This document shows positions 5,230-42,448 of a stretch of 42,496 bases of DNA, one piece after another. Numbering within the stretch: position 1 is the first letter of the stretch; each line of letters starts with the position of its first letter. This stretch comes from Patescibacteria group bacterium (GTDB lineage: Bacteria > Patescibacteriota > Minisyncoccia > UBA6257 > UBA9933): NCBI GenBank assembly GCA_038065955.1, contig JBBTPY010000002.1, forward strand, positions 1-42,496. The letters run 5' to 3'. The position numbers and the translations under genes were made by a program. Under the pieces are notes generated by a model that made no database searches, was not told the origin of the DNA, and saw only the letters and a program-made list of their open reading frames with translations.

Positions 5230-6255
5230 ATGACAATTAACGCGATTATTAACGATTTAATAAAAAATTTGGATCGACGCCAAAAGGACGTTATTGAGGC
5301 GAGATTCGGATTATTAAGGGGGACAAAGCAAACTTTGGCCGCCATCGGCAGAAAATATAATCTTACGAGAGAAAGAATTAGGCAGATAGAGGCCGCCTCT
5401 TTGAATATTGTCAGAAAGAAATTCGACGATTTGCCGGCTAAAAAAATTTCAGAAGCGGCTTTTGGAGAATTAAAAAAATTCGGCGGCGTAAGGAAAGAAG
5501 ACGATTTTATCAAGGATTTAATAATTTTGTTAAAAGACAATAATATTAACGGGCGCGATTTAAAATTTATTTTTGAAGTTGCCCGAAAGCCGGAATTTTA
5601 TCGCGGAGACAATAATTATTATGATTTTTGGTATTTGGATAAAGAAGTTTTTAAAAAAGTCGCCGGTTTTATCAATAATTTGGCGGAAGCCATTAAAAAT
5701 AAAAAAAAGGAGATAGTCGTTCATAAAAAATTTAACGTGTTTTTTAATGAAGTTCTTAAGGCGCGCGGCGTTGACGACAAAACCGCTTTTAATTATCTCG
5801 CCATTTCAAAGAAATTTAAAACTAGTCCTTTTGGCGATTTTGGCTTAAGTCATTGGGAAGAAATCAATCCAAAAACTTTTAGGTCTAAAATTTATGTGAT
5901 TCTTAAGCGCCACGGCAAACCTTTGTATTTTCGAGAAATCGCCGACAGGATTAATAAAGTCGGTTTTAGCGGCCCTATCGCGCGGCACCGGACGATACAT
6001 AATGAACTGATTAAAGACCCGCGTTTTGTTTTGGTTGGCCGGGGAATGTACGGGCTTACCGAGTTCGGTCTTGAACCGGGCGCGGCCAAAGACGTCATTA
6101 AGCGCGTTTTAAAAAATAAAGGCCCTTTGCCCAGGGAAGAAGTCATAAATTTAGTGCTTCAGGAAAGATTTTTAAAACCCAATACGATTTTGCTGAATCT
6201 CCAAAATAAAAAGCATTTCAAAAAACTGCCGGACGGCAGATATCGTTTGGCGTAA
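5230..6255 (+). CDS. Sigma-70 region-4-like HTH fused to a HARE-HTH (RNAP delta-like) domain protein
   Basis: The N-terminus RQKDVIEARFGLL..QTLAAIGRKYNLTRERIRQIEAASL matches the sigma region 4 pattern. The C-terminus YFREIADRI....HRTIHNELIKDPRFVLVGRGMYGLTEFG matches the HARE-HTH pattern. Confidence 0.7.
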   Translation: MTINAIINDLIKNLDRRQKDVIEARFGLLRGTKQTLAAIGRKYNLTRERIRQIEAASLNIVRKKFDDLPAKKISEAAFGELKKFGGVRKEDDFIKDLIILLKDNNINGRDLKFIFEVARKPEFYRGDNNYYDFWYLDKEVFKKVAGFINNLAEAIKNKKKEIVVHKKFNVFFNEVLKARGVDDKTAFNYLAISKKFKTSPFGDFGLSHWEEINPKTFRSKIYVILKRHGKPLYFREIADRINKVGFSGPIARHRTIHNELIKDPRFVLVGRGMYGLTEFGLEPGAAKDVIKRVLKNKGPLPREEVINLVLQERFLKPNTILLNLQNKKHFKKLPDGRYRLA

Positions 6256-7574: not shown

Positions 7575-9044
7575 ATGAATGAAATAAATTTTTTTGGTAA
7601 AACTAATTTTCGCAATCAGCAGGTTAAATTCGGCATTAAAATCGATGACCGGCGCCGGCATATGTATGTTGTCGGCAAAACCGGCACCGGTAAAACCAAT
7701 CTTTTGGAAAATATGGCGATTGCCGATATTCAAGCCGGCCGGGGCGTGGCCGTTGTGGACCCGCACGGCGAATTTGCCGAAAAAATGCTGGATTTCGTTC
7801 CGGAAAATCGCATTGACGACGTGATTTATCTTAATCCGGCCGACATTGATTATCCGATTGCTTTTAATCCTTTGGAGCAGGTGAGCCTTGAATATCGTCA
7901 TCTCGTCGCTTCCGGCATAATGGGAGTTTTTAAAAAAATTTGGCCCGATGTTTGGTCCGCGCGGATGGAATATATTCTTAATAATGCGCTTTTGGCGCTT
8001 TTGGAATATCCCGGCTCAACGCTTTTGGGAATAATGAGGATGCTGGCGGAGAAAGAATATCGGAAGCAAATAGTTGATAATCTGAAAGACCCGGTTATTA
8101 AAGCTTTTTGGGTCAATGAATTCGCCCGTTATACTCAGCGTTTGGAAACCGAGGCGGTCGCCGCCATCCAGAATAAAGTAGGCCAATTTATCGCCAATCC
8201 TTTAATAAGAAACATTATGGGACAGTCGCATTCGGCGATTAATATGAGAAAAGCGATGGACGAAGGAAAGATTTTAATAATCAATCTTTCCAAGGGCAGA
8301 ATCGGAGAAGATAATTCGGCTCTTTTGGGCGCGATGATTATCACCAAGCTTCAGCTGGCGGCGATGTCGCGCGTTGACATTCCTATGGAACGCCGGAAAG
8401 ATTTTTATCTTTACGTTGACGAATTTCAGAATTTTTCCACGGAATCTTTCGCCAATATTCTTTCCGAAGCCAGAAAATACCGTTTAAATTTGATTTTAGC
8501 CCATCAATATATCAGCCAGTTGACCAGCGACCAGAATACCAAAGTCAGGGACGCGGTTTTCGGCAATGTCGGTACGATTGTTTGTTTTCGGGTCGGCGCC
8601 GAAGATTCGGAATTTTTGGAAAAGGAATTTTTGCCGGAATTCAACGCCAATGATTTGGTAAATTTGGCTAAGTACAATATTTACGTGAAACTGATGATTG
8701 ACGGCGTCGCTTCAAAGGCTTTTTCGGCGGAAACTTTGACGCCTTACGAGGCGCCGGTCAACAGTTTTAAAGACGTGATTATTGAAAATTCAAGAAATAA
8801 ATACGGCACTCCGCGTTCAGTGGTTGACGATAAAATCAGCAAAGAATGGATGGCGGAAGCCGGAATTGTTGAAGAAAAAATTCGGCGGCGTGAAGAACAG
8901 CCGCTGGAAAAAACTCTGGTCCGGCCGGAACCGTTCAGGCGGCCGATTGTTCAGCGCGAGAAAAAAATTATTGACATTGAAGAATTAAAAAAAACAATCC
9001 AAAAATCATTGGGGAAAATAGGAGAAGGAGAAACAAAAAAATAA
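7575..9044 (+). CDS. Type IV secretion coupling-protein-like (VirD4/TraD/TraG family) P-loop ATPase
   Basis: Walker A is VVGKTGTGKT and Walker B-like is FYLYVDEFQNF. The segment RKYRLNLILAHQYISQL resembles the TraD/TraG C-terminal domain. Confidence 0.75.
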   Translation: MNEINFFGKTNFRNQQVKFGIKIDDRRRHMYVVGKTGTGKTNLLENMAIADIQAGRGVAVVDPHGEFAEKMLDFVPENRIDDVIYLNPADIDYPIAFNPLEQVSLEYRHLVASGIMGVFKKIWPDVWSARMEYILNNALLALLEYPGSTLLGIMRMLAEKEYRKQIVDNLKDPVIKAFWVNEFARYTQRLETEAVAAIQNKVGQFIANPLIRNIMGQSHSAINMRKAMDEGKILIINLSKGRIGEDNSALLGAMIITKLQLAAMSRVDIPMERRKDFYLYVDEFQNFSTESFANILSEARKYRLNLILAHQYISQLTSDQNTKVRDAVFGNVGTIVCFRVGAEDSEFLEKEFLPEFNANDLVNLAKYNIYVKLMIDGVASKAFSAETLTPYEAPVNSFKDVIIENSRNKYGTPRSVVDDKISKEWMAEAGIVEEKIRRREEQPLEKTLVRPEPFRRPIVQREKKIIDIEELKKTIQKSLGKIGEGETKK

Positions 9045-30748: not shown

Positions 30749-31468
30749 TTAATGGTCGCGCAATATTTTTTCATGACTGGCTGCGTGGCCTTCTCCATAT
30801 ACAATAAAAAGATCATATCCTTTTTCCCAAACATCTTTAATTCCCTTAATAACAGTTTGGTCGCGATATTTTCCGGAAGCGCGGACAACATCTTTAAACG
30901 GGTTATCTTCTTGCGTTGGGCTTTCTATTTTTTTAAAAAATTCAACATCGTTAAAATCCAATTCTGTTTTAAAAAATTGTTGGTGAATTTTTTTCATATG
31001 TTCAATGGAAAATTCAAAATCGTTCCACCCGCTTGCTTTTTCGTGGCGTTGTAAAAATGGCGATAAATAAGAAATTATATCCGGTTTTTGCTTTAATCGA
31101 TGCCATTGAGAAACAGTGCGGGCAAAATAATAATAAGCAATTTGTTCTTTGGAAAACTGCTGTAGTAGAGCATTCATTTCTTTGCCGCGATCTGGCTCAA
31201 AACAAGAAATAGGAGTATTGGTTTGATGGCAAAGATAAGCCATAAAATCTATCTCTCCTCCTTTTAGTATTGATTCTGTTTCTGTGTTATGGGTTTTCCA
31301 TCCTCGCGATTCCACGACAGCCAATGGCTGTTTAGCTATTTTTAAAAAATCTATCCATTTTTCTTTTATAAAGTTGAATTGTCGGTCAGTTGAATCCCAA
31401 GAATGGCGGACGCCAAGATAAAATAAAGTGGTGTTATTCTTTTTAAGAGAAAAGAAATAAGGAAACAT
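30749..31468 (-). CDS. Hypothetical protein, possibly of the Tiki/TraB/GumN superfamily
   Basis: 239 aa with two GxxH-type motifs at the positions typical of that superfamily (LFYLGVRHS near the N-terminus, IVYGEGHAASH near the C-terminus). The assignment is tentative. Confidence 0.3.
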   Translation of the reverse strand: MFPYFFSLKKNNTTLFYLGVRHSWDSTDRQFNFIKEKWIDFLKIAKQPLAVVESRGWKTHNTETESILKGGEIDFMAYLCHQTNTPISCFEPDRGKEMNALLQQFSKEQIAYYYFARTVSQWHRLKQKPDIISYLSPFLQRHEKASGWNDFEFSIEHMKKIHQQFFKTELDFNDVEFFKKIESPTQEDNPFKDVVRASGKYRDQTVIKGIKDVWEKGYDLFIVYGEGHAASHEKILRDH

Positions 31469-31493: not shown

Positions 31494-32132
31494 TTATTGG
31501 AGGACGTCTAGAAATTCTTTTTCAAGTTCCGTAAGATTTTTACCAAAAATATTAATTACAATTTTATTAAAACGATAATAAGAATAATAAATTGAAGATG
31601 ATTTTATTAATTGTTTTATTTTTTTAAATCCGTATTTATCAATAATATAGTGCGTGAATAAATAAGCAGTTGGATAAGCGCTTAAATTATTTCTGAATCG
31701 ATTCCAATTATAAAGTGTGTCAAGTTTACCACAAAAATTTGCTTCAAAATATTTAACTTTTGAGTTTTTATATTGCCCGGAAATAACCCCGGCCAATCCT
31801 TCAATTAACCACATAGGAAGAGTTTTGCTGTTTGACAAATGATTTGTGTAAATATGAATAAGTTCATGTTTAATTAAAAAAGGAAATTCTTCGAGTTTAT
31901 GCGATGGCGCTTCTTTTTTCCATCGCGCTGGATCCAGTAATAAAATTGTTTTTTTATTAGAGTTTGCGTTCCCAATTTCCCAATCAGCGGTTTTTCTGCC
32001 TAATAATTTTTCATATTCTGTTCTGTTTTTGGCAACCGTTATTTCAATATTTTCCAAATGAAAACCAAAAAAATCAGCAATTTCTTTGCGGGCGTTTTTA
32101 ATTTCTGTGTCGTATTTTGTGGTTTTGGGCAT
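31494..32132 (-). CDS. Cytoplasmic HExxH gluzincin-like peptidase (MA-clan-like), cassette 1
   Basis: 212 aa. HELIH is followed ~18 residues later by WLIEGLAG (third-ligand Glu pattern). No signal peptide. It is divergent from rSAM cassette 1. Confidence 0.6.
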   Translation of the reverse strand: MPKTTKYDTEIKNARKEIADFFGFHLENIEITVAKNRTEYEKLLGRKTADWEIGNANSNKKTILLLDPARWKKEAPSHKLEEFPFLIKHELIHIYTNHLSNSKTLPMWLIEGLAGVISGQYKNSKVKYFEANFCGKLDTLYNWNRFRNNLSAYPTAYLFTHYIIDKYGFKKIKQLIKSSSIYYSYYRFNKIVINIFGKNLTELEKEFLDVLQ

Positions 32133-32235
32133 AAATTTTCTTTAATTTAATCATACCAAATCTTTTTTATTTCGCCCACTTCTTGCTTAATTTCTCCCTA
32201 GTTAATTTCCTCTTATATTGTAGTATAATCTGGGT

Positions 32236-32304: not shown

Positions 32305-32335
32305 TGATAGCGGGAAATTGCGGATATATCGGCGC

Positions 32336-32465
32336 TTGACAAATTGGTTTGACTTGATATCATAAAACCAGCGTTTGGCTAAAATGGTTTAGTCAAAAGG
32401 ACATTAAAAAATAACGGCGAAGCCGTTTATAAGGGAGAAAATTTAAGAAAAGGAGGTGAAAAAAA
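32336..32465 (+). promoter_or_regulatory. Conserved promoter + two-hairpin 5' leader, cassette 1
   Basis: TTGACA lies at 32336-32341. Hairpin 1 is TTTGGCTAAA-ATGG-TTTAGTCAAA (32374-32397). Hairpin 2 is AACGGC-GAA-GCCGTT (32413-32427). The SD is AAAAGGAGGTG. It is homologous to the elements at 35512, 38160 and 40742. Confidence 0.65.
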
Positions 32466-33920
32466 ATGAAAAAGCAAAAATATCAGCTATCCCCAAATGT
32501 CCGCATCATATTTAATTCTGGAACAGAAACAGCGATGGTTTATCACGCGCTGTATGGCAATCCTCGGATTATCAATAACGAAGGTTTACATTTTTTGAAT
32601 TTATTTAGACAGCCGGTTGGTATGAAAGAAATATCTGAAATTTGCGATGGAGATTCAGAAGATACTATTCAAGAGTTTACTGAAATCTTTTTCCTTGTTA
32701 AACCCGGTTTCGACGAGAAAAAGTTCCTGCGAGAAAAAAAAGAACAGCAACTTATCCAAGTGCAAGAACGGCGGACGGTTGACAGGATGGGTCTCGCAAT
32801 CAGTGATTCGTGCAACTTTGGATGCACACACTGTATTCATTTCCAACCCGCAACCAACTTTGGTCAGGTACTGCTGATTTATCAACAAGCAACTCCACAG
32901 CTCAATATGACTTGGGAAACCGCAAAGCGATGCGTGGATCAGTATATTGCATTGATGAGATATCAAAAAAGGACTCACGGAAAGATACATTTCGGAAACG
33001 CAGAACCATTAGTCAATTGGCCTGTCATTAAGCAGGTGCTTGAATACTGCAGTAAGATGAGTGATCTCTCGTTTGAGTTCGCCATCAATACAAACATGGC
33101 GTTCATGACCAGACAAATTGCCGAGGCACTCAAGAAACATCAAGTTCACATTGCGACTTCACTCGATGGTACCCAGGTAGCCAACGATGCTATCCGTATT
33201 ACAAAGGGTGGGCAAGGAACATTCGTTCACATCCTTAAAAAATTTGATCTTTTAGTAAAGATTGGCTATCCGCTCGACGGATTCAGTATTACTATTACAA
33301 GAAGAAATTTTGATCTCGTTGATACGGATATTCTTGACTTGGCGATTGAAAGAAAAATGACTTCAATTGCCTTCGATTATGACCTTGTCGGTTTGGTTCA
33401 TATTCCAGTTGAGAAACGAATCACAAAACTCATGCGGCTCAAAAAATACGCCAACGAACACGGCGTCGATTTCTTTGGAACGTGGGATTCTCCGTTTCGT
33501 AATCTAACATCAGAAAGTCTTTTGTTTGGAGATCACGCGTTTTGCGCCGCTGTTCAGGGTAAATCTCTTGAGTTTAACGTGAATGGCAGTATTAAGATTT
33601 GTAGTCATACCACTACGCCGATAGGTCATATAGATAGATTTGATGGAGTGTTTGAAGAAAGGGGCGGTTTAGTGCAAATAGTTGCCAGTCGTTTCCCCGG
33701 AACGAATGAGTACTGTTCCGGCTGTGAGATAGAAGGACCCTGTGGCGGACAATGCCATGTTACCAGAGAGGTTGTTTCATGCTCGGCAAGCGAGAATCGA
33801 CAAAAATTCTTTGTCGATATGTGTGATTTTTATCGTGAAATTACAAAAGCGCTTGCCATAGAGTATCTCCGGTCAAATGGCGATAGCATGGCAAGTAGTC
33901 GCAAACGCTGTACTTTGTGA
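32466..33920 (+). CDS. Radical SAM / SPASM-domain peptide maturase, cassette 1
   Basis: 484 aa. A ~110-aa N-terminal (RRE-like?) region precedes CNFGCTHC (Cx3Cx2C). The C-terminal auxiliary-cluster Cys pattern is CAAV..ICSH..CSGCEIEGPCGGQCHV. Confidence 0.85.
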   Translation: MKKQKYQLSPNVRIIFNSGTETAMVYHALYGNPRIINNEGLHFLNLFRQPVGMKEISEICDGDSEDTIQEFTEIFFLVKPGFDEKKFLREKKEQQLIQVQERRTVDRMGLAISDSCNFGCTHCIHFQPATNFGQVLLIYQQATPQLNMTWETAKRCVDQYIALMRYQKRTHGKIHFGNAEPLVNWPVIKQVLEYCSKMSDLSFEFAINTNMAFMTRQIAEALKKHQVHIATSLDGTQVANDAIRITKGGQGTFVHILKKFDLLVKIGYPLDGFSITITRRNFDLVDTDILDLAIERKMTSIAFDYDLVGLVHIPVEKRITKLMRLKKYANEHGVDFFGTWDSPFRNLTSESLLFGDHAFCAAVQGKSLEFNVNGSIKICSHTTTPIGHIDRFDGVFEERGGLVQIVASRFPGTNEYCSGCEIEGPCGGQCHVTREVVSCSASENRQKFFVDMCDFYREITKALAIEYLRSNGDSMASSRKRCTL

Positions 33921-33936: not shown

Positions 33937-34032
33937 ATGAAAAAAATCAAAATCAAAAAAATCAAAATTACCAAAGTCGTTTCCATGCCTTCGGGAGCAT
34001 TTTTTCCTGGTAAACGAACAGGTTGCAAGTAA
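33937..34032 (+). CDS. Candidate precursor peptide 1 (31 aa, Lys/Ile-rich, single Cys)
   Basis: The SD AAAGGAGGTG lies 7 nt upstream of ATG 33937. The peptide is MKKIKIKKIKITKVVSMPSGAFFPGKRTGCK. It occupies the same position as the mini-ORFs in cassettes 2-4 and is followed by a terminator. It is absent from the ORF track. Confidence 0.5.
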   Translation: MKKIKIKKIKITKVVSMPSGAFFPGKRTGCK

Positions 34033-34043: not shown

Positions 34044-34080
34044 GGGGTTAAGTACGAAAGTATTTAACCCCGCTTTTTTT
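34044..34080. terminator. Bidirectional terminator after cassette 1, overlapping the kinase 3' end
   Basis: GGGGTTAA (34044-34051) pairs with TTAACCCC (34064-34071), followed by GCTTTTTTT. Confidence 0.65.
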
Positions 34081-35001
34081 ATTCCATTTTACTATGATTT
34101 CATTGATATTTTTCTTTGGACTATTTGAATTTATTGTCCAATAAAGCGCGTTAAGATAAAAAATGGCGCGCACAAATTGATATTTTTTCTGAAATAGTTT
34201 TCTATCTTTTATAAGATTTGATTTTAAAATCGCCGCGATTAATTTATTCATGTAATCAGCTTCAAATATTTCATCAATACCTTGTTCTTGGTAAGCCTTT
34301 GCGCATTCTTGATAATAAAAAATGCGAAAAAGATCGTAGTCAGCATCGCCGAATAATGCCAGTTCCCAATCAATAATTCCGGTTAATTTTTTGCCGTCCG
34401 TAAGTAAGTTATGAATAATAAGATCACCATGAACAAGAGTTATTTCACCGTCGTCGGGAAAGAGATTTTGAGCTTCGGATTTTTCAATAATTAATAATAA
34501 ATCTTTTAAGATTTTATTTGCTTGTTTAAATTTCCTTATCCTGGAAATTTTTAGATTGATGTTGTCAGTGAGATAATCCAGAAAATTATTATATTTTTCA
34601 CCGGTATTAACGGAATAAATATAATCTTTAGTTTGAGTTTTTAAATACTGCAAAAATTTAATAATTTGTTTAACAATATTTGCTTGATTGGTTTTTGATA
34701 GAGTTTTCCAAAGCACGTCCAAAGTCTTTCCGGGAAGTCGATTTTCAACCATGGCGACTGATTTATTAATTTTCCCCGCCCACACGATATTTGGTATTAA
34801 TGAATGATTAAGTTTTTTTAAAAATTTTGTTTCTCTCAATAAAAGTTTTGGATTGTTATCTCGAAAACGGACGATATATTTGTTTGAAATGAAAACTTTA
34901 TGATGAGTACCGTTTGTAGCAGCTACAAAACGTTCTTCTTTGGAAATAGCAAGTTGTTTTTTGATTTTTTTAATTCGCAATAGATAATTTTTCATATTCA
35001 T
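34048..35001 (-). CDS. Aminoglycoside-phosphotransferase/choline-kinase-fold (APH family) kinase
   Basis: 317 aa. The catalytic loop is LVHGDLIIHNLL. The metal-binding segment is GIIDWELALFGDADYDL. An N-terminal Lys region (KVFIS) is present. Confidence 0.75.
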   Translation of the reverse strand: MNMKNYLLRIKKIKKQLAISKEERFVAATNGTHHKVFISNKYIVRFRDNNPKLLLRETKFLKKLNHSLIPNIVWAGKINKSVAMVENRLPGKTLDVLWKTLSKTNQANIVKQIIKFLQYLKTQTKDYIYSVNTGEKYNNFLDYLTDNINLKISRIRKFKQANKILKDLLLIIEKSEAQNLFPDDGEITLVHGDLIIHNLLTDGKKLTGIIDWELALFGDADYDLFRIFYYQECAKAYQEQGIDEIFEADYMNKLIAAILKSNLIKDRKLFQKKYQFVRAIFYLNALYWTINSNSPKKNINEIIVKWNKKSGVKYFRT

Positions 35002-35113
35002 TTCTATTTTCCGCGACTATGATTTCAATATTTTCTAAATGAAAACCAAAAAAATCCGCAATTTCCTTATGAGCGTTTTTAATTTCTATAGTATATTTAT
35101 CAGTTTTTACCAT
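34970..35113 (-). pseudogene. 47-codon N-terminal remnant of a cassette-type HExxH peptidase, overlapping the kinase start
   Basis: MVKTDKYTIEIKNAHKEIADFFGFHLENIEIIVAENRNEYEKLSIAN* aligns with the N-terminus of the 31494..32132 protein (MPKTTKYDTEIKNARKEIADFFGFHLENIEITVAKNRTEYEKL). The HExxH part is absent. Confidence 0.7.
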
Positions 35114-35221: not shown

Positions 35222-35493
35222 ATGTCAACCATTCTTGAAAATATCAAAATCATTATAGACAACGATCCAAAAGATTACGAGGTTAATAGTTTTTTAAGAA
35301 GATCATAATTTCATCAATGAAATCTCTTATTCTTGTCTTCCACGCTTTTAGGGATTTATTAATCAGGCATTTGCCAAATTTAAGAGAAAAAGAAAATTCT
35401 TTCGCGTTTCTAGTGCATCCGAGAGATACAAAAGACGTTTACCGGAAATATCCGTTTGCCGAATATCTGCCGGAAAATATGCTCTATAATTAA
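35222..35493 (+). pseudogene. Remnant of an unidentified gene in two pieces behind a leaderless-type promoter
   Basis: TGGTATAAT lies at 35207-35215, followed by 6 nt and ATG 35222. Piece one is MSTILENIKIIIDNDPKDYEVNSFLRRS* (35222-35308). Piece two is MKSLILVFHAFRDLLIRHLPNLREKENSFAFLVHPRDTKDVYRKYPFAEYLPENMLYN* (35317-35493). Both end abruptly. Confidence 0.5.
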
Positions 35494-35633
35494 CCGTATT
35501 TTGTCGCGCGCTTGACAAATCTGTTTAGTTTACTATTATAAAATCAGCATTTGGCTAAATGGGTTAGCCGAAATAACTTAACAAATAACGGCGAGAGCTG
35601 TTTATAAGGAAAGATTTTAAATGAAAAGGAGGT
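35339..35633 (+). repeat. 295-bp direct repeat, copy 1 (identical by eye to 37987..38281)
   Basis: Comparing the two stretches by eye, base for base, from TCCACGCTTTTAGGG to AAAAGGAGGT found no difference. The repeat covers the remnant ORF, the TTGACA promoter and the structured leader. Confidence 0.85.
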
Positions 35634-35640
35634 GAGAATA
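35512..35640 (+). promoter_or_regulatory. Conserved promoter + two-hairpin 5' leader, cassette 2
   Basis: TTGACA lies at 35512-35517. Hairpin 1 is TTTGGCTAA-ATGGG-TTAGCCGAA (35550-35572). Hairpin 2 is AACGGC-GAGA-GCTGTT (35587-35602). The SD is AAAAGGAGGTG. Confidence 0.65.
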
Positions 35641-36939
35641 ATGAAAAACAAAACATTTCTTGAGAAAGATACATTTATTGTTAGGGATGGAGAAACGTAT
35701 ATTATATATGCTCCATTTCGTGGTTTGATTACTCGGATAAATGAATTTCCAAAGAAAAATTCTCTGTTTTATTATCAATTAATTGATGTGGGATTTTTCC
35801 GCGAACCGCCTAAGTCGATAAAACGAGATGTTGAATGGCGCGATTTCCGTTCGCTTACGCTCTTACTTACGCGCGCGTGTAATATGAGTTGTATATATTG
35901 TTATGCGAAAGCGACGTCAAATGGAGAACGGATGCCTCTTAAAATTGCCCTCGGAACAGTTGAGTGGTTTTTGAAACAATTTATTGGAGAAACCATCAGA
36001 ATTACATTTCATGGCGGCGGAGAACCTACTCTGGAAATTAAAACAATTAAGAGAGTTGTGGAATATATTGAACGACATAAAAGAGATAAAAAAACTACTT
36101 ATCTTATTACCACAAACGGTACTGCGAAGCGGGAAATATGGGATTGGCTTGTAAATTATCAATTTGGCATTTCTATTTCCATGGATGGTCCTCCCGATAT
36201 TCAGAATCGTAATCGTCCTCTTGCGGTTTTAGGACAAAAAAATTCTTCTCAAATTGTTGAACGGAATTTGAAATTCTTAATAACGCGGGAATATCCTTTT
36301 TCCGTGCGACTTACTTTTTCACCAACCGATGATATTACGCGCATTGTTAAATATTTTGGCGAATTAGGAGTTAAGACACTTCATCTTGAACCGCTTTTTC
36401 CCTATGGAAGAGAATATAAATCGGTGGAATTTGGAGGAAAAAGCCGATATAAAATATATTCTCCTCAAGGCGAGGAGTTATTAAAAAATTTTTGGCAGGC
36501 GCTGGAAATGGCGCGAAAATATGGAATGAAGATTCGCAATGGACATATCAGTTATTTTACGAAAGGTATTGGATATTTTTGCGGCGCTGCGAGCGCGCGG
36601 TCTATGATAGTAAATCACGAAGGAAAACTTACTGGGTGTCTCGAGGTGGTAGACTCTTTAGATTTAGATGCTAATATATTTAATTTCGGTTATTATGTAC
36701 CAGAAGAAAAGCGGTTTGAGATTGATTTTAGTAAGGTAAAGATAATGCAAGAACGTCATGCCGACGCGCTTTCAGGGTGTAATTTATGTTATGCGCGATA
36801 TACTTGCGCTGGAGGGTGCGCCGTAAAAGCAGTGCGAGAATCAAATAATTTCTTTGCGCGTGATTTATTATATTGCGCGTTCACAAAAAATCTAATTCCT
36901 TTATTAGTTAAACATATTGTTAATACCACAGGAATTTAA
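35641..36939 (+). CDS. Radical SAM / SPASM-domain peptide maturase, cassette 2
   Basis: CNMSCIYC (Cx3Cx2C) follows an ~80-aa N-terminal region. The C-terminal pattern is CGAAS..LTGC..CNLCYARYTCAGGCAV. I prefer ATG 35641 (SD 7 nt upstream) over the track's GTG 35632. Confidence 0.85.
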   Translation: MKNKTFLEKDTFIVRDGETYIIYAPFRGLITRINEFPKKNSLFYYQLIDVGFFREPPKSIKRDVEWRDFRSLTLLLTRACNMSCIYCYAKATSNGERMPLKIALGTVEWFLKQFIGETIRITFHGGGEPTLEIKTIKRVVEYIERHKRDKKTTYLITTNGTAKREIWDWLVNYQFGISISMDGPPDIQNRNRPLAVLGQKNSSQIVERNLKFLITREYPFSVRLTFSPTDDITRIVKYFGELGVKTLHLEPLFPYGREYKSVEFGGKSRYKIYSPQGEELLKNFWQALEMARKYGMKIRNGHISYFTKGIGYFCGAASARSMIVNHEGKLTGCLEVVDSLDLDANIFNFGYYVPEEKRFEIDFSKVKIMQERHADALSGCNLCYARYTCAGGCAVKAVRESNNFFARDLLYCAFTKNLIPLLVKHIVNTTGI

Positions 36940-36957
36940 GAAAGGAGGTAAATAACG

Positions 36958-37113
36958 ATGAAAACTTTTACAGCTGTTCTTCCCGAAGAGTTAGTTCTTG
37001 GAGTGGATAGCTCTGTTTCTAGTTGTAATGGGCATGAAGGTTGTAGCGGCGATGATTGCAACGCGGATACTGGCGGATGCCCTTCAGATGGAAGTTGTGG
37101 CCAGGATTGTTAA
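36958..37113 (+). CDS. Candidate precursor peptide 2 (51 aa, six Cys in an acidic Gly/Ser-rich core)
   Basis: The SD GAAAGGAGGT precedes ATG 36958. The peptide is MKTFTAVLPEELVLGVDSSVSSCNGHEGCSGDDCNADTGGCPSDGSCGQDC. It is absent from the ORF track and is followed by a terminator. Confidence 0.7.
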   Translation: MKTFTAVLPEELVLGVDSSVSSCNGHEGCSGDDCNADTGGCPSDGSCGQDC

Positions 37114-37137
37114 TAATGGCAATATCTTAAGCTCTTA

Positions 37138-37178
37138 AGCAGTGAATCAGTTTAACTGGTTCACTGCTTTATTTTTTT
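37138..37178. terminator. Bidirectional terminator after cassette 2
   Basis: AGCAGTGAATCAG pairs with CTGGTTCACTGCT (13 bp, one U.G) around loop TTTAA, followed by TTATTTTTTT. It overlaps the stop of the minus-strand peptidase. Confidence 0.75.
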
Positions 37179-37867
37179 AACCACTCTTTCCAATTTTTTT
37201 GTAATTCTTGATATGTCATTTTAAAAATAATAGAACAAAGATATTCGTCATTAATCCCATTATTGCGCATTTCTTTTATAAATTTTAATAATAATTCAAG
37301 GCCGTATTTTTTAACGCAATATTGCGCGATACTGCCGGCCAAAGGATAGAAATCACTTGGCAAGGTTGATCTCCAAAAATCCCATGGAGTGTTTAATATC
37401 TCATTGGAATAATTCATAAAATTAGCGTGTTTTTTCTTATCAGCGTTTGCGCCGTCATAATATACGCATAATGATTCTTCCCATAAGCCGTTTGCCGGAA
37501 GATTTTCCGATGGATTTATACTTCCTAATAAAATATGATTTAATTCATGTCCTGGAGATTGTTTTAAATGCCCGTGAATTTCTTTTTGTTTAAGAAAAGA
37601 AATTGCCGGCGTTATGCCGATATCTTTTACGGAATTGATTGACGGATATACATAAAAATTAACATTTGAGATTGGATTAATGCCGAATATTTTCGCGTTT
37701 TGTAAATAAATATTTACGCGTTCTTGAATCCAGTTTGAAGGGATTTTTAAATTAGGATAAATATGAAAAACAATATATTTTGTTTTTTTAACACTCCAAT
37801 TATTAAAAAATCCTTCCCCTTTGAGTTTTTTTATTTGATTTTTTGTTTTTTCAAACCAATTTATCAT
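37169..37867 (-). CDS. Cytoplasmic HExxH peptidase-like protein, cassette 3
   Basis: 232 aa. HELNH is followed ~19 residues later by LWEESLCVYY. No signal peptide. It is divergent from rSAM cassette 3. Confidence 0.55.
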   Translation of the reverse strand: MINWFEKTKNQIKKLKGEGFFNNWSVKKTKYIVFHIYPNLKIPSNWIQERVNIYLQNAKIFGINPISNVNFYVYPSINSVKDIGITPAISFLKQKEIHGHLKQSPGHELNHILLGSINPSENLPANGLWEESLCVYYDGANADKKKHANFMNYSNEILNTPWDFWRSTLPSDFYPLAGSIAQYCVKKYGLELLLKFIKEMRNNGINDEYLCSIIFKMTYQELQKNWKEWLKK

Positions 37868-37961: not shown

Positions 37962-38141
37962 ATGTTTAAAAGTGTTATTTTAATTCTCCACGCTTTTAGG
38001 GATTTATTAATCAGGCATTTGCCAAATTTAAGAGAAAAAGAAAATTCTTTCGCGTTTCTAGTGCATCCGAGAGATACAAAAGACGTTTACCGGAAATATC
38101 CGTTTGCCGAATATCTGCCGGAAAATATGCTCTATAATTAA
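37962..38141 (+). pseudogene. Second copy of the gene remnant (59 codons) behind a leaderless-type promoter
   Basis: TGGTATAAT lies at 37947-37955, followed by 6 nt and ATG 37962. The ORF reads MFKSVILILHAFRDLLIRHLPNLREKENSFAFLVHPRDTKDVYRKYPFAEYLPENMLYN*. It matches 35317..35493 except for the first residues. The track's TTG 37956 start is less likely. Confidence 0.5.
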
Positions 38142-38281
38142 CCGTATTTTGTCGCGCGCTTGACAAATCTGTTTAGTTTACTATTATAAAATCAGCATTT
38201 GGCTAAATGGGTTAGCCGAAATAACTTAACAAATAACGGCGAGAGCTGTTTATAAGGAAAGATTTTAAATGAAAAGGAGGT
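37987..38281 (+). repeat. 295-bp direct repeat, copy 2
   Basis: It lies at a constant offset of 2648 nt from copy 1. No mismatch was seen by eye. Confidence 0.85.
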
Positions 38282-38289
38282 AAAAAGAG
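38160..38289 (+). promoter_or_regulatory. Conserved promoter + two-hairpin 5' leader, cassette 3
   Basis: TTGACA lies at 38160-38165. The hairpins are identical to cassette 2 (38198-38220 and 38235-38250). The SD is AAAAGGAGGT. Confidence 0.65.
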
Positions 38290-39564
38290 ATGAAAAGAGA
38301 AAAATATTTTACTCTGAATAAAAATTGCTTTTTAATTAAAGGAGCAAAACGAGGAGCGATTTATGATTTAGAATCAGGAAATGTATTTTCAGTGAACGAA
38401 GTAAGTGTTAAAATCTTAGAGGAATTAGATTCTTGGAAAGAATTTAAGCAGGTTTTTCAAGAAGACAAAAACATAACAGAGGGGAAATTAGTCATTTATT
38501 TAAATAAACTTAAAAAACTTGGTTTAGGGGAATGGAGCGAAATCTACAGAGAGAAATTAAACGTTATCCCAAAACCAATAGACGTTCTCAAATTTGTTCT
38601 TCATCTTGAATTGACTACTGGTTGCAACTTGTGTTGCGTTCATTGTTATAACGAAAGCGAAATAACCAAATTTAGAAAAAATAATAATCTTTCTCTTAAT
38701 GAATGGAAGAGGATTATAAAAGAAGCTTATGAGATTGGTTGTAGAAGAGTCCAATTTATCGGAGGAGAACCATTTTTGAAAAGGAGATTGTTGTATACTT
38801 CGATTCTGCTTGCTCGGGAAATAGGTTATACTTCAATAGAAGTAAGTACTAATGGAACCTTAATAACAGAAAAAGATTTGGACTTTTTAAAAGAAAATAC
38901 GGTTAGTTTAGCCTTTTCTGTTTATAGTTATAACTCTAATGTGCATGATGCTATTACTGCCAAAAAAGGAAGCCAAAAACAAACATTGCGTACAATTAAA
39001 AGAGCTTTGGAGATGGATATTAATTTTAGAATATCAGTAGTGGCAATGAGGCAAAACGAAAAAGAAATTAAGAAGACAGTTAAGTTTTTAAAATCTCTTG
39101 GAATTCAGCATGTAAAGACAAATACTGTTGAACCAGTGGGTAGAGGCTGTAATGATAATCTTATTACCGCTGATATAGTAGACCAACAGATTTTAGACAG
39201 ACCTTCTTTCTTTAAAATTAATTACAATACATTTTGGAGAAATAAATTAGGGCATAACTGTTTTCTTGAACATATTTGTATTGCGGCAGATGGTAATATT
39301 TATCCTTGTCTTGCGGAACGAGAAATTTCTTACGGAAATATAAAATCAACTCCGTTGAATGAAATTTTTTCATCAGAGATAGCGCAAAACTTTCGCAATT
39401 TAAATAAGGATTATATTGAAGTTTGCCGAGATTGCGAATATCGATATTGTTGCTTTGATTGTCGCGTAAAAGCCAGAGATTCTTTAATTAATAGTTTTTA
39501 CACAAAATCTTGGTGGTGTTTCTATGATCCATATAAGGGTCAGTGGCATAAAAAAATTAATTAA
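38290..39564 (+). CDS. Radical SAM / SPASM-domain peptide maturase, cassette 3
   Basis: CNLCCVHC (Cx3Cx2C) follows a ~105-aa N-terminal region. The C-terminal pattern is CFLEHICIAADGNIYPC..CRDCEYRYCCFDCRV. Confidence 0.85.
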   Translation: MKREKYFTLNKNCFLIKGAKRGAIYDLESGNVFSVNEVSVKILEELDSWKEFKQVFQEDKNITEGKLVIYLNKLKKLGLGEWSEIYREKLNVIPKPIDVLKFVLHLELTTGCNLCCVHCYNESEITKFRKNNNLSLNEWKRIIKEAYEIGCRRVQFIGGEPFLKRRLLYTSILLAREIGYTSIEVSTNGTLITEKDLDFLKENTVSLAFSVYSYNSNVHDAITAKKGSQKQTLRTIKRALEMDINFRISVVAMRQNEKEIKKTVKFLKSLGIQHVKTNTVEPVGRGCNDNLITADIVDQQILDRPSFFKINYNTFWRNKLGHNCFLEHICIAADGNIYPCLAEREISYGNIKSTPLNEIFSSEIAQNFRNLNKDYIEVCRDCEYRYCCFDCRVKARDSLINSFYTKSWWCFYDPYKGQWHKKIN

Positions 39565-39580: not shown

Positions 39581-39709
39581 ATGGCAAAGAATATTGAAAA
39601 ACAAAAAGAAGATGATGGATTGGAAATTCAATTAATAACAAGCGAGTTGGCGACTGATGGTGTTTGTGGCCCCGATACTTGTCCTTGGGTTGGCTGTGAG
39701 GTGAGCTAA
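39581..39709 (+). CDS. Candidate precursor peptide 3 (42 aa, C-x4-C-x4-C core)
   Basis: The SD AAAAGGAGGTG precedes ATG 39581. The peptide is MAKNIEKQKEDDGLEIQLITSELATDGVCGPDTCPWVGCEVS. The track's 39524 start lies inside the rSAM gene and has no SD. Confidence 0.7.
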   Translation: MAKNIEKQKEDDGLEIQLITSELATDGVCGPDTCPWVGCEVS

Positions 39710-39715: not shown

Positions 39716-39760
39716 GGGCTGTTCAAGTTTTTTTAAATCTTGGGCAGCCCTATTTTATTT
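39716..39760. terminator. Terminator after cassette 3
   Basis: GGGCTGTTCAAG (39716-39727) pairs with CTTGGGCAGCCC (39739-39750) over 12 bp with two U.G pairs, followed by TATTTTATTT. It overlaps the 3' end of the minus-strand peptidase. Confidence 0.65.
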
Positions 39761-40536
39761 CTATTTTTAATTAAAAATTCTTTTAACTCTAAAATGTTCT
39801 TTTTTAATTTACCGCCCAAATATTTTCTCCAATATGGGAATAATTTTTTTTCTAATGGCAAAAAGGTAGGAGATTCAGTACAAAATTTTCCTTCTTTGAA
39901 ATATTTTCCTTTTTTATTTAATCTAATTTTTAACTCGTTATCTGCTAACATAATAAGAGCATGGAGGATGTCATAGTTTGGTTGAAAATGATCGAGCCAA
40001 GTCATAATATGCATTAACTCATGACAAAGAAAAATTGTTGAATGATTTTTCCATTTTTCTTCGCGCCCTCGAACAATAGTATTTTTATTAATAGTTTTTG
40101 CATTTTGCGATTTAGGATGCGTAATATAAACAGTAATTTTATGTTTAGGGATTGGCAATCCGGATATTTCTTGAAGAATTTTTAAAGCCTCTTTTTTATT
40201 TCTGTTCCATTGATTTCTAATAAATATAAGATGCTCTTCTGTTTCTTTTAATAATCTCTTACACTCTTTCGTTTTAAAAATTTCTTTGTAAATCTCTTTT
40301 AGTTTTAATAAATGCTTTTTAAAAACTTTTTCAATGTTTCTATCGTCAAAATTTGTTTGTATTTGTTCTAACGCTAAAGAGATATATTTCGAGTTTAAAA
40401 AATAATAAGCAGGCTCATCTCTGTGTTTTTGCCATATTTTTTCTTCCAGTTTTTCCCATGCAGGAAATGGCTTATTTTTTGAAGCCATCGTATAGCCGAC
40501 AAGATAATATTTATTTATTTTAAACTCAAATTTCAT
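39733..40536 (-). CDS. Cytoplasmic HExxH protein (peptidase-like), cassette 4
   Basis: 267 aa with HELMH in FLCHELMHIMTWLDH. No signal peptide. It is divergent from rSAM cassette 4. Confidence 0.5.
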   Translation of the reverse strand: MKFEFKINKYYLVGYTMASKNKPFPAWEKLEEKIWQKHRDEPAYYFLNSKYISLALEQIQTNFDDRNIEKVFKKHLLKLKEIYKEIFKTKECKRLLKETEEHLIFIRNQWNRNKKEALKILQEISGLPIPKHKITVYITHPKSQNAKTINKNTIVRGREEKWKNHSTIFLCHELMHIMTWLDHFQPNYDILHALIMLADNELKIRLNKKGKYFKEGKFCTESPTFLPLEKKLFPYWRKYLGGKLKKNILELKEFLIKNRNKIGLPKI

Positions 40537-40625: not shown

Positions 40626-40745
40626 ATGCTTAAAGATTATCTAAAAAACTTATTATTAGGTGTTGCGGAAAGAAAGCCGAATGCGAAGATTTTTAATCTT
40701 TTCAAAAAAGATTATACCAGAGGCGCGAAATATATACAGGATTGA
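40626..40745 (+). CDS. 39-codon small ORF behind a leaderless-type promoter
   Basis: TGGTATAAT lies at 40611-40619, followed by 6 nt and ATG 40626. The ORF reads MLKDYLKNLLLGVAERKPNAKIFNLFKKDYTRGAKYIQD*. Its TGA overlaps the TTGACA of the cassette promoter. The coding status is uncertain. Confidence 0.3.
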   Translation: MLKDYLKNLLLGVAERKPNAKIFNLFKKDYTRGAKYIQD

Positions 40746-40869
40746 CAAATTGGTTTGACTTACTATACTAAAATCAGTGTTTGGCTAAAATGGGTTTAGC
40801 CAAAAGAACTTTGAAAAACAACGGCAGGGCCGTTTAGATGAAAAAATTAAGAAAAGGAGGGAAAAAGAA
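40742..40869 (+). promoter_or_regulatory. Conserved promoter + two-hairpin 5' leader, cassette 4
   Basis: TTGACA lies at 40742-40747. Hairpin 1 is TTTGGCTAAA-ATGGG-TTTAGCCAAA (40780-40804, perfect 10 bp). Hairpin 2 is AACGGC-AGG-GCCGTT (40820-40834). The SD is AAAAGGAGGG. Confidence 0.65.
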
Positions 40870-42294
40870 ATGGGAAAAGATTATTCTTTTTCAATGGATG
40901 ACATTCCTACTAAAGCGGATTTTATTTATAAGGATCAGATTGACGAGTTAACCTTAATGTGCACGCCATTAGCAATGAACGGTATACACTTATTAAGTGT
41001 GAAGTCTTTATCTGTGTTGAACCAATGTAGTGGTGTTTTCTCAATTGGAGAAATTATTCAATTAACCGGCTGTGAAAAAACATATGTCTTTGGTGTAATC
41101 AACATTCTGTGGCAGAATAGGCTTATCAGAATCAACGGTGAGTTTCCGCCGAATGACAACAGAATTAGTTTATCTAAGCAAATTGATGTTTGGTTTCATA
41201 TCACAAATAACTGTAATCTCCGTTGTCCTTACTGTTACATTCAAAAGACTAATGAGTCAATGAATAAAAGAATGGCGTATCTGGCTGTTGATAATCTAAT
41301 TAATAGTGCATTATCGCATTATATTCCGGAAGTGCGTCTTAAATTCACGGGCGGAGAACCGTTATTGCGTTTTTCTCTTATTAAAGGATTGGTAAATTAC
41401 AGCAAAAGACAAGGCGAAGAAAGAGGAGTAAAATTCAGTTTTCATATTTTAACTAATGGGACTCTTCTTTCAGAAAAAATTGTTAGATATCTCAAGGAAG
41501 AAAATATCACACTTTCACTTTCTCTTGATGGTGTTGAGGAAGAGAATAACCGATTGAGATATTATGCGAATAGCAAGGGCACTTTCAGGCGTATTGAGCA
41601 ATCCATGAAACTCTTAAAAGACTATGGAATTCGTCCATATATCCTTACAACTGTTACGGCTTTGAATCTTGATGGTTTACCAGCTTTCACCCGCTATGTG
41701 ATAAAAAATAAGTTTTCTGTTCGTTTTAGTCTATATCGCGAATTAGGTGTTTCAAAAGAGGCGTTAAAAAATTACACCGATGAAGTGATAAAAATTCTTC
41801 ATAAATGTTACGATATCTATGAAGAAAATTTACCAGAAGAAGATTTTTCTTCTGTACATCAATTGTGCGATATTAAATTGAAAAAAAGCAGAAAACGGGT
41901 TTGCGGAATTGGCACTAAAGGAGTAAGTATTGGTCACCGAGGAGAAATTGCTCTTTGCCAAGCATTGTTCAACAAACCCATAGGGCATATCTCAAAAGAC
42001 GATGCTCTTGCCGCTGTTCGTAATCAAAATCAATTCCCATCTCATAAATATTCCATTAATAATTACGAACATTGCAAAGATTGTAATTGGCGATATTTGT
42101 GCGGCGGCGGATGTCCCGTGTTAACTAAACTGCAATACGGCAGATTCGACACATTTTCTCCTTATTGCGAAGTATTTAGAACTTTAATTCCTAGATTGAT
42201 TAGGATTATGGGACTTCAGATTTTGCGGGCACATAGGAAAACAATGACTGAAATCGAGAAACAAAAAGGAGGTGATTTAGATGCAAATCAATGA
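40870..42294 (+). CDS. Radical SAM / SPASM-domain peptide maturase, cassette 4
   Basis: CNLRCPYC (Cx3Cx2C) follows a ~110-aa N-terminal region. The C-terminal pattern is CGIGTKG..IALC..CKDCNWRYLCGGGCPV. Confidence 0.85.
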   Translation: MGKDYSFSMDDIPTKADFIYKDQIDELTLMCTPLAMNGIHLLSVKSLSVLNQCSGVFSIGEIIQLTGCEKTYVFGVINILWQNRLIRINGEFPPNDNRISLSKQIDVWFHITNNCNLRCPYCYIQKTNESMNKRMAYLAVDNLINSALSHYIPEVRLKFTGGEPLLRFSLIKGLVNYSKRQGEERGVKFSFHILTNGTLLSEKIVRYLKEENITLSLSLDGVEEENNRLRYYANSKGTFRRIEQSMKLLKDYGIRPYILTTVTALNLDGLPAFTRYVIKNKFSVRFSLYRELGVSKEALKNYTDEVIKILHKCYDIYEENLPEEDFSSVHQLCDIKLKKSRKRVCGIGTKGVSIGHRGEIALCQALFNKPIGHISKDDALAAVRNQNQFPSHKYSINNYEHCKDCNWRYLCGGGCPVLTKLQYGRFDTFSPYCEVFRTLIPRLIRIMGLQILRAHRKTMTEIEKQKGGDLDANQ

Positions 42295-42406
42295 AAATTA
42301 CGGCATAATTTCTGGATTTACTGCTGACACATTAATTATTTCGCAGTGCCAGGAGTGCGCTCCCGTAGAAGACTGCGATTGTCATTGTGTTGACGATGAT
42401 GATTAG
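42281..42406 (+). CDS. Candidate precursor peptide 4 (41 aa, five Cys, poly-Asp tail)
   Basis: The SD AAAAGGAGGTG lies inside the rSAM 3' end. ATG 42281 overlaps the rSAM gene by 14 nt. The peptide is MQINENYGIISGFTADTLIISQCQECAPVEDCDCHCVDDDD. It is absent from the ORF track. Confidence 0.7.
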   Translation: MQINENYGIISGFTADTLIISQCQECAPVEDCDCHCVDDDD

Positions 42407-42413
42407 CGGAGTT

Positions 42414-42448
42414 GGGGTTGAATTTGATAAATTCAACCCCATTTTTTA
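42414..42448 (+). terminator. Rho-independent terminator after cassette 4
   Basis: GGGGTTGAATTT (42414-42425) pairs with AAATTCAACCCC (42429-42440), followed by ATTTTTT. Confidence 0.8.

Follow-up and report, generated by a model that had tools for sequence, protein, structure and literature searches.

A candidate radical-SAM-modified peptide family with a repeated Cys-x-x-Asp core in Patescibacteria

RESULTS AND DISCUSSION

A small Cys-rich gene beside a radical-SAM gene

The stretch of DNA analysed here (the window) comprises 42,496 nt of contig JBBTPY010000002.1 from a Patescibacteria group bacterium (GenBank assembly GCA_038065955.1, positions 1 to 42,496, forward strand). At positions 36958–37113 it carries a small open reading frame (ORF) for a Cys- and Asp-rich peptide, located directly downstream of a gene for a radical S-adenosylmethionine (rSAM) enzyme of the SPASM type and followed by a convergent gene for a protein with an HExxH motif. 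Our favoured interpretation, held with moderate confidence, is that the ORF codes for the precursor to a peptide synthesized by ribosomes and modified after translation (RiPP), in a three-gene cassette, and that it belongs to a ranthipeptide-like family restricted to the candidate phyla radiation (CPR), in which CxxD motifs would be converted to Cys-Asp thioethers. The features of this cassette are as follows (window positions).

35512–35539, + strand: sigma-70-like promoter, TTGACA-16-TATTAT (11/12)
35540–35640, + strand: conserved 5'-untranslated region (5'-UTR), with hairpins at 35550–35572 and 35587–35602 and a Shine-Dalgarno site, GGAGG, at 35628–35632
35641–36939, + strand: rSAM/SPASM peptide maturase (predicted), 432 aa from ATG 35641
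36942–36948, + strand: Shine-Dalgarno sequence AAGGAGG of the peptide gene, 9 nt 5' of its ATG
36958–37113, + strand: putative precursor peptide ORF, ATG 36958, stop TAA 37111–37113; product MKTFTAVLPEELVLGVDSSVSSCNGHEGCSGDDCNADTGGCPSDGSCGQDC, 51 aa, six Cys
36958–37023, + strand: leader region of the peptide (residues 1–22), with A-V-L-P-E-E-L-V-L-G at residues 6–15, then a variable linker
37024–37041, + strand: extra unit C-N-G-H-E-G (residues 23–28), lineage-specific, holding the sixth, non-conserved Cys
37042–37113, + strand: conserved core (residues 29–51) and stop, C-S-G-D-D-C-N-A-D-T-G-G-C-P-S-D-G-S-C-G-Q-D-C, with four CxxD motifs and a C-terminal Cys
37137–37179, + strand: intrinsic terminator (15-bp stem, 3-nt loop, T-run)
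37169–37867, − strand: putative zinc metallopeptidase and candidate leader peptidase, 232 aa, with HELNH at 37535–37549

Re-translation of the peptide ORF gave the same 51-residue, six-Cys product as described in an earlier note on this DNA, and both the Cys spacing reported there (C-x5-C-x4-C-x6-C-x5-C-x3-C) and the presence of Asp, Asn or Glu in every inter-Cys segment were correct. The description of the peptide as unannotated requires qualification, as the exact ORF has been called by public gene callers on at least 23 contigs; its NCBI homologues are indeed just labelled 'hypothetical protein'. The peptide ATG follows the rSAM stop codon (36937–36939) after a gap of 18 nt, and a AAAGGAGG Shine-Dalgarno element precedes each of the four small ORFs in the window that are discussed below. 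The terminator is probably bidirectional, because it extends into the 3' end of the gene convergent with it.

Small size alone speaks for regarding 36958–37113 as a chance, non-coding reading frame. Cys makes up 11.8% of the peptide, compared with 1.0% of residues in long ORFs of the window. The six frames of the window contain 160 ORFs of 40–80 aa, of which only 36958–37113 encodes six Cys; its four CxxD motifs compare with at most one in any other. Codon analysis of seven distinct core DNA sequences showed saturated synonymous sites (pooled pS 0.93) and few amino acid changes (pN 0.16). The resulting pN/pS of 0.175, together with 77 clusters of homologous peptides (see below), rules out a chance ORF, and the Shine-Dalgarno sequence, the terminator and conserved synteny also count against one. 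The probability left to this explanation is vanishingly small, and the ORF is a genuine gene under selection.

Peptide family and conserved residues

A single-sequence search recovered nine homologues of the peptide, and a profile built from these recovered 77 peptide clusters at 90% identity, all of them short stand-alone proteins. An exhaustive HMMER scan of 1.84 billion representative proteins yielded 19 clusters at 50% identity, each 47–82 aa long and likewise stand-alone. Named sources were Candidatus Azambacteria, the Parcubacteria group and Candidatus Paceibacterota; other members were unnamed or listed as 'hypothetical protein'. The earlier note knew of no peptide matching this one, and this held, as the peptide had no match to any Pfam or NCBIfam family at E ≤ 0.1, and a literature search returned no description of its motif or of a ranthipeptide from CPR/Patescibacteria (the family may nonetheless be included in a larger ranthipeptide network). 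At least 23 contigs, assembled from several samples, carry the exact 51-aa peptide in an identical cassette layout throughout (loci L122–L129; Hain_* records, e.g., Hain_H52, Hain_H51 and Hain_H32). Judging by these record names alone, the samples may be metagenomes from groundwater wells. Assembly coverage of these contigs reached approximately 383x in one case, and the largest is 695 kb long, which fits a small CPR genome.

The precursor is bipartite, with a leader (A-[VI]-L-P-x-E-L-x-L), a variable linker and a separately conserved core. Alignment of the family gave the leader consensus (I/V)-x-V-V-x-A-(V/I)-L-P-E-E-L-V-L-G, which recurs in the 77 clusters, and residues A6, P9, E11 and L14 are invariant among homologues. 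The core consensus is C-x-G-D-[DG]-C-N-x-D-x-G-G-C-x(2-3)-D-x-x-C-G-Q-D-C. Per-position conservation across 78 peptides showed that all five core Cys (C1–C5) are present in 78/78, as are an Asn directly after C2 and a Gly-Gln pair after C4. Asp is found three residues after C1 in 78/78, three after C2 in 75/78, in the loop following C3 in 77/78 and three after C4 in 76/78. Four Cys thus have Asp at +3 or +4 in 75–78 of the 78 peptides, a core arrangement resembling that of ranthipeptides, with Cys as donors and Asp, Glu, Thr or Asn as acceptors at short, fixed distances. The median core charge is −5, and besides Gly the invariant core residues are limited to Cys, Asp, Asn and Gln. C5 is the last residue in 57/77 members, and has no downstream Asp. 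Aromatic residues occur in only 2/77 cores, and cyclophane formation or other C-C cross-linking was rejected on that basis.

The six-Cys, repeat-like core proposed in the earlier note was borne out for five of the Cys; the first, in CNGHEG, is a variable add-on that is missing in 42/77 members. The canonical five-Cys form (42/77) is hence the family norm. An extra N-terminal Cys at variable spacing occurs in 21/77, including the window copy, and an extra Cys within a C-terminal extension in 15/77, mostly as S-C-x-x-D(...), with C-T in some. These C-terminal extensions append further C-x-x-D units (SCGAD, SCPSD, SCSGD and SCGSD). Because the extra C-terminal units mostly take this form, the recurrent unit is C-x-x-D. 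The suggested Cys/Asp repeat is therefore present, but what recurs is CxxD, not the spacing between Cys that was stressed.

The rSAM/SPASM enzyme

Translation of the enzyme starts at ATG 35641, as previously stated, behind the ribosome-binding site AAAGGAGGTGA; the GTG at 35632 listed by the ORF program lies inside that site. The window enzyme matches the Pfam models Radical_SAM and Fer4_12, with no match to the Pfam SPASM model. Counting from GTG 35632, a CX3CX2C motif (C83/C87/C90) and seven SPASM Cys (C317, C336, C383, C386, C392, C396 and C415) are invariant across 55 homologues, the C-terminal Cys conforming to C-x2-C-x5-C-x3-C plus three more. The best NCBIfam models were those for PapB (136.3 bits, cut-off 340), a nif11-type maturase (125 bits, cut-off 519) and QhpD (123.9 bits, cut-off 453), followed by weaker matches to the SCIFF maturase (82.1 bits, cut-off 425) and the sactisynthase RumMC (55 bits, cut-off 720). 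PapB likewise leads for all 55 homologues, ahead of the nif11-type and QhpD models, and no homologue comes near a cut-off (best PapB E-value 5.1e-47).

A profile search of the Protein Data Bank (PDB) placed 5WGG/5WHY, which we take to be CteB, at the top (2e-35), with anSME second. An AlphaFold2 (AF2) model of the enzyme (pLDDT 93.6, pTM 0.91) agreed in fold with SPASM enzymes and was most similar in Foldseek to 5WHY/5WGG (TM-score 0.71–0.74), followed by anSME, TigE and ChlB, and the fold of SkfB scored 0.47. The alignment to 5WGG covers approximately the full length of the enzyme. The ranthipeptide logic of the earlier note is consistent with the SPASM rSAM class of the adjacent enzyme and with both its nearest curated models (PapB, nif11-type and QhpD) and its nearest structure. 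The AF2 model also contains a confidently predicted N-terminal domain (residues 8–53), with four strands and one helix, preceding the TIM barrel. Judging from the model, this domain may be a reduced RiPP-recognition element (RRE); canonical RREs have more helices.

As rSAM/SPASM enzymes are chemically diverse, the enzyme could modify the peptide without forming thioethers, for example by converting Cys to formylglycine (as anSME-like enzymes do), by epimerization or by other radical tailoring. The second rank of anSME by both sequence and structure favours such a reaction, as does the match of 30/55 family members to the sulfatase maturase model at E ≤ 1e-20. The peptide itself fits it poorly, as a sulfatase-type C/S-x-P-x-R motif was not found in the core, and five invariant Cys with fixed acidic partners suit donor/acceptor pairs better than single-site tailoring. 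Moreover, each of the three leading curated models, like the top structure, represents a peptide Cys cross-linker or a putative RiPP maturase. We therefore consider a reaction of this kind to be quite improbable.

Conservation of the cassette among relatives

Loci retrieved with the peptide comprise an rSAM gene (430–460 aa), a gap of approximately 20–30 nt, the peptide gene and then a gene for a protease-type partner, which is either a convergent ~230-aa protein or a same-strand Peptidase_S41. The precursor adjoins a co-oriented rSAM gene in L001–L011, L030–L032, L034, L036, L110, L114–L117, L119, L120 and L122–L129, and an rSAM-peptide pair with consecutive locus tags is found in NCBI (Athens071426_642/643). 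Starting from the enzyme instead, and considering loci with at least 45% enzyme identity for which downstream DNA was present, 6/6 distinct loci carry the peptide 20–130 nt downstream (L030–L032, L034, L036, L117, L119 and L120). The canonical peptide of L117 and L120 had been overlooked by gene callers. According to the earlier note, retention of the enzyme in close relatives with an absent or disrupted ORF would have argued against the pairing. No such case was seen, because all six loci keep the peptide, and at lower enzyme identities it is diverged rather than lost.

Approximately 100 enzyme clusters have more than 35% identity. A search of genome contigs with the single enzyme sequence returned distant rSAM proteins (23%–34% identity) and zero family members. 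When the enzyme alignment was used against metagenomes, 8/80 loci were close, and the remainder encoded distant SPASM enzymes with unrelated Cys-rich peptides. Precursor diversification at the family edges is evident from other Cys-rich peptides beside distant enzyme relatives. For example, L121 (38% enzyme identity) encodes two tandem peptides, at 4508–4630 and 4641–4796, which keep the leader logic and share a terminal C-G-[EK]-[DN]-C (the two end in ...HCKPHTCGKNC and ...NCANNDGTGYGCPAQAGCGEDC). In L037 (40% enzyme identity), a different Cys/Asp-rich ORF (...SCMANSCDDDCSCNSTCSCDGECSCDGDCGCD...) lies on the opposite strand at 5167–5334.

The convergent 232-aa protein has syntenic orthologues in L005–L011, L110, L114, L115/116, L120 and L122–L129, across which HGH..QSPGHELxH and a downstream Glu (E131) are invariant. 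Peptidase_S41 is encoded in L001–L004, L117 and L119, as opposed to the convergent HExxH protein in L005–L011, L110, L114–L116 and L120. This alternation means that the presumed leader protease has been replaced by a non-homologous one between lineages. Substitution by an unrelated S41 peptidase at the same position speaks well, though indirectly, for proteolysis as part of the pathway.

This arrangement bears on a further possibility, namely that the peptide is no substrate but a metal-binding micro-protein, rich in Cys and Asp and left unmodified (a donor of Fe-S or metal, or metallothionein-like), that travels with the enzyme. Its 12% Cys and strongly negative core are compatible with such a role, and the invariant D-C-N-x-D-x-G-G loop presumably bears a loose likeness to acidic Ca2+/metal-binding loops. 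Conservation is split between leader and core, however, and the hydrophobic leader motif is unrelated to metal binding. In every lineage a protease gene of one of two unrelated types occupies the same position, and the peptide gene lies directly 3' of a RiPP-type SPASM enzyme with an extra N-terminal domain. Taking both sides into account, we find a metal-binding micro-protein extremely doubtful.

Proposed biosynthesis and alternative cross-links

It is very likely that the ORF and the rSAM gene form a genuine RiPP precursor-enzyme pair. The earlier proposal of a precursor modified by the adjacent rSAM, with Cys joined to Asp, Asn or Glu, gains computational support from co-conservation, from the enzyme class and from the near-invariant Asp at +3/+4 of C1–C4. 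By analogy with characterized enzymes, thioether cross-links in the product are likely, and the odds are about even that these are in-line rings connecting the sulfur of Cys(i) to the beta-carbon of Asp(i+3).

Given the co-orientation, the 18-nt gap and the 3' terminator, the enzyme and peptide genes would be co-transcribed from the promoter at 35512, with transcription ending at 37137. The leader (AVLPEELVLG) may then dock on the N-terminal beta-sheet domain of the enzyme. If the reaction resembles that of known rSAM enzymes, the [4Fe-4S] cluster held by CX3CX2C would cleave SAM, and the 5'-deoxyadenosyl radical would take a hydrogen from the carbon beside the Asp carboxylate. A Cys thiolate at the SPASM auxiliary cluster could subsequently form the S-C thioether, as we infer from PapB and QhpD. 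This reaction would be repeated at the four C-x-x-D motifs and, in the window copy, at a C-x3-E motif (CNGHE). This is predicted to give a strongly anionic peptide of approximately 23–29 residues in which small in-line rings follow one another, with the C-terminal Cys left over. The leader would finally be removed by the HExxH peptidase or, in other lineages, by the S41 peptidase.

The peptide could also be the substrate of this enzyme with a different link chemistry or topology. Variants include sactionine links (S-C-alpha), links to Asn, Gln or Gly, nested or hairpin connectivity, and pairing of each Asp with the following Cys, such that C2–C5 are used and C1 is free. The Asn at C2+1 and the Gln at C4+2 are conserved (78/78) as well as the Asp residues are, C5 is invariant and without a downstream Asp in 57/77, and a D-x(0-4)-C reading provides each of C2–C5 with an upstream Asp. 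Exceptions to the motif also occur in the family, such as an extra C-V-G-T unit in L034 and the Asp-poor cores of L121. The enzyme itself falls outside every curated equivalog, and PapB was found to join Cys to a backbone carbon of the C-terminal residue in engineered substrates (PMC12373016). Against sactionines, sactisynthase models score far under PapB and QhpD (RumMC, 55 bits). As for topology, extension variants always append C-x-x-D and not D-x-C, and Asp is fixed at +3, whereas its spacing to the following Cys ranges from 0 to 4. On balance, a different linkage appears rather unlikely.

Several observations weigh against our preferred reading of CxxD thioether rings formed by this cassette. 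A scheme of one ring per CxxD leaves an invariant residue unexplained, because C5 has no downstream Asp partner, and the role of acceptor could in truth belong to the invariant Asn (C2+1) and Gln (C4+2). Both the thioether chemistry and the ring connectivity are inferred by analogy. The reaction of the enzyme cannot be transferred by homology, because all its scores fall far short of the curated cut-offs; anSME, second among the structural matches, catalyses a different reaction, and the N-terminal domain has no PqqD/RRE match in Pfam. Regarding the protease, Peptidase_MA_2 was matched by 7/7 orthologues of the 232-aa protein, though below threshold (best 4.2e-6). A profile search of the PDB found no sequence relative of this protein, and its single-sequence structure model (pLDDT 45) was unusable. 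Two loci also depart from the conserved layout. The peptide has no adjacent intact rSAM in L112, and the neighbouring rSAM is truncated to 253 aa in L113; both loci are rearranged, with the ~230-aa gene upstream and divergent. Finally, a conserved transporter was not found in the cassette.

Comparison with characterized systems

In its way of working, the closest known system is that of freyrasin (PapA/PapB), a ranthipeptide of Paenibacillus polymyxa, and 5WGG/5WHY is closest to the enzyme in structure. As in the window, the freyrasin precursor has repeated Cys...Asp motifs and is encoded beside a SPASM rSAM. PapB joins the Cys sulfur to the beta-carbon of Asp or the gamma-carbon of Glu and accepts C-Xn-D with n = 0–6 (PMC9413430). 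Because of this tolerance, CxxD rings are chemically plausible. The freyrasin precursor has six C-x3-D motifs, whereas the window peptide has four C-x-x-D (one of which is sometimes C-x3-D in the family) and a terminal Cys. The window family further differs in its short AVLPEELVLG leader, its HExxH or S41 protease partner and its Parcubacteria/Paceibacterota sources. The window enzyme, at 136 bits, falls short of the 340-bit cut-off and is not a PapB equivalog (NF047865).

SCIFF peptides, such as thermocellin (CteA/CteB), likewise have a precursor of approximately 45–50 aa (the window copy having six Cys) beside a SPASM rSAM. They are now classed as ranthipeptides and occur in Clostridia, and the acceptor in thermocellin is Thr (PMC8172795). 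In the window family, by comparison, five Cys are the norm, the proposed acceptor is Asp and the TIGR03974 model gives the enzyme 82 bits (cut-off 425). The peptide is not a TIGR03973 member, because it has no NCBIfam match at E ≤ 0.1, and SCIFF membership was rejected on both this and the maturase score (82.1 against 425 bits). Membership of the enzyme in the sactisynthase families was also discarded, given the RumMC score (55 against 720 bits), the SkfB fold (TM-score 0.47) and the scores of AlbA/RumMC/SkfB/StsB-type models, which are well below those of PapB and QhpD.

In the maturation of QhpC, the gamma-subunit of quinohemoprotein amine dehydrogenase, QhpD makes intrapeptide Cys-Asp and Cys-Glu thioethers; this substrate is larger and has a quinone derived from Trp. 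The QhpD model (TIGR03906) was third best for the window enzyme and was matched by all 55 homologues, with the window copy scoring 123.9 bits (cut-off 453). QhpD is a SPASM rSAM that is homologous to PapB (PMC8172795). None of the fetched loci contained dehydrogenase subunit genes (qhp) and, in contrast to QhpC/QhpD, the window precursor has a leader peptide and is accompanied by a protease-type gene. The CcpM/Cys-rich peptide, CefB 'Cys-every-fifth', CXXX-repeat and nif11-type systems share with it a SPASM rSAM and a short Cys-repeat precursor; however, the enzyme scores far under their cut-offs and no precursor model matches the window peptide. Although the nif11-type maturase was the second-best model, the window leader is approximately 20 aa long and lacks a Nif11 domain.

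Uncharacterized rSAM-RiPP families are common. Should the predicted chemistry apply, the sequences point to a new family of precursors for rSAM thioether RiPPs, in which motif spacing and taxon are also new and the protease partner is different. A more far-reaching joint claim is that this is the first defined CPR/Patescibacteria-specific RiPP family, with four very small Cys-x-x-Asp rings, in a new topology, round an invariant D-C-N-x-D-x-G-G loop or, alternatively, a new and undescribed type of cross-link (e.g., to the invariant Asn, Gln or C-terminal residue). It further holds that the product is poly-anionic with a free C-terminal Cys, and serves as a Ca2+/metal-binding or host-directed signal rather than as a conventional bacteriocin. 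We judge it distinctly unlikely that all of this is correct. The near-invariant, highly acidic core points to a particular target molecule or ligand, which could bear on episymbiont-host or metal interactions. If the product is a multi-thioether ranthipeptide, the class would be extended to a new phylum-level group, and engineered PapB work would be complemented by a naturally occurring substrate-enzyme pair for CxxD (four-residue ring). The system is compact, with three genes in approximately 2.4 kb.

Four cassettes with a shared 5' leader

The last 10 kb of the window contains four promoter-rSAM-small peptide cassettes, of which the one described above is the second. The upstream 30 kb is ordinary chromosomal context (SecDF, ThiI, RelA/SpoT, TopA and PBP2).

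Cassette 1, + strand: shared promoter and 5'-UTR 32324–32465, rSAM gene 32466–33920, small ORF 33938–34032
Cassette 2, + strand: shared promoter and 5'-UTR 35500–35640, rSAM gene from 35641, peptide 36958–37113
Cassette 3, + strand: shared promoter and 5'-UTR 38148–38289, rSAM gene 38290–39564, peptide 39582–39709
Cassette 4, + strand: shared promoter and 5'-UTR 40730–40869, rSAM gene 40870–42294, peptide 42281–42406

The four rSAM enzymes share 20%–30% pairwise identity. Their promoter and 5'-UTR segments (~130 nt), in contrast, align with 82% mean column identity and have the common form TTGACAAAT...-16-TATxxT, followed by a ~100-nt 5'-UTR with two hairpins (TTTGGCTAAA/TTTAGCCAAA and AACGGC....GCCGTT) and the AAAGGAGG site. 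A 36-nt motif of this leader occurs exactly four times in the window (0.01 expected), and the 5'-UTR RNA of cassette 2 (35540–35640) has a predicted fold of −17.1 kcal/mol (z = −2.77). The 5'-UTR matched no Rfam family, and the UTR and promoter motifs were not found in the 116 fetched loci. The shared leader may be an operator, attenuator or riboregulator of a RiPP regulon, and one promoter and leader common to a four-cassette array would, if true, imply that the regulon is dedicated.

CPR/Patescibacteria have tiny genomes and are generally held to be poor in secondary metabolism. A survey of Patescibacteria metagenome-assembled genomes (MAGs) reported zero biosynthetic gene clusters (PMC11613949). 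Here, approximately 10 kb is given to four rSAM-peptide cassettes, one of which belongs to a family recurring across Parcubacteria.

Among the enzymes in the window, the rSAM of cassette 4 is closest to PapB (174.7 bits, E-value 2.9e-51), still under the cut-off of 340. The peptide of this cassette (MQINENYGIISGFTADTLIISQCQECAPVEDCDCHCVDDDD, 41 aa) is rich in Cys, Asp and Glu, ends in DDDD and is followed by a terminator at 42413–42441; it is probably a second, distinct thioether RiPP. The rSAM of cassette 3 has clear SPASM and weak PqqD Pfam matches, its nearest curated models are of the AhbD/NirJ2 type, and its peptide is MAKNIEKQKEDDGLEIQLITSELATDGVCGPDTCPWVGCEVS (42 aa). In some strain variants that have the identical 51-aa peptide and an intact cassette 2 (L125 and L127), this enzyme is shortened to 317 aa or broken into two parts (230 + 183 aa). 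The nearest models for the cassette 1 enzyme are RumMC and PapB. Its small ORF encodes a Lys-rich product of 31 aa with one Cys (MKKIKIKKIKITKVVSMPSGAFFPGKRTGCK) and is followed by a convergent APH-family kinase-like gene at 34048–35001 on the − strand (Pfam APH, 6e-18). The substrate here is of a different kind, and phosphorylation may be involved.

A 300-nt direct repeat with 97% identity lies 5' of cassettes 2 and 3 (35320–35619 and 37968–38267) and contains the remnant of a 58/61-aa ORF (...HAFRDLLIRHLPNLREKENSFAFLVHPRDTKDVYRKYPFAEYLPENMLYN). The repeat points to recent duplication or recombination between the two cassettes.

Further genes for HExxH proteins flank other cassettes at 31494–32132 and 39733–40536, both on the − strand. 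The former encodes a distant paralogue of the 37169–37867 protein (E-value 6e-6 over the catalytic region) with a flagellinolysin-like NCBIfam match (2.5e-9); the latter has the HExxH motif alone in common with that protein. A 47-aa fragment at 34970–35113 (− strand), the DNA of which is 79% identical to the N-terminus (32003–32133) of the 31494–32132 gene, looks like a protease pseudogene remnant between cassettes 1 and 2. At 30749–31468 (− strand), a 239-aa protein with no Pfam or NCBIfam match is homologous (E-value 3e-19, 26% identity) to a 270-aa protein of L037 (4304–5116, − strand) that adjoins the 40%-identical rSAM of that locus, and could be another accessory protein that is conserved.

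On related CPR contigs, further rSAM/SPASM genes lie beside Trp-rich small ORFs, at 7842–8033 (− strand) in L114 (...NWDNNWSDWDNSGGHNEWEDWNPSPPGG) and at 3214–3396 in L002 (...IWDKGPWDKGPWDKGHWANRK), which suggests cyclophane-type RiPPs in the same organisms.

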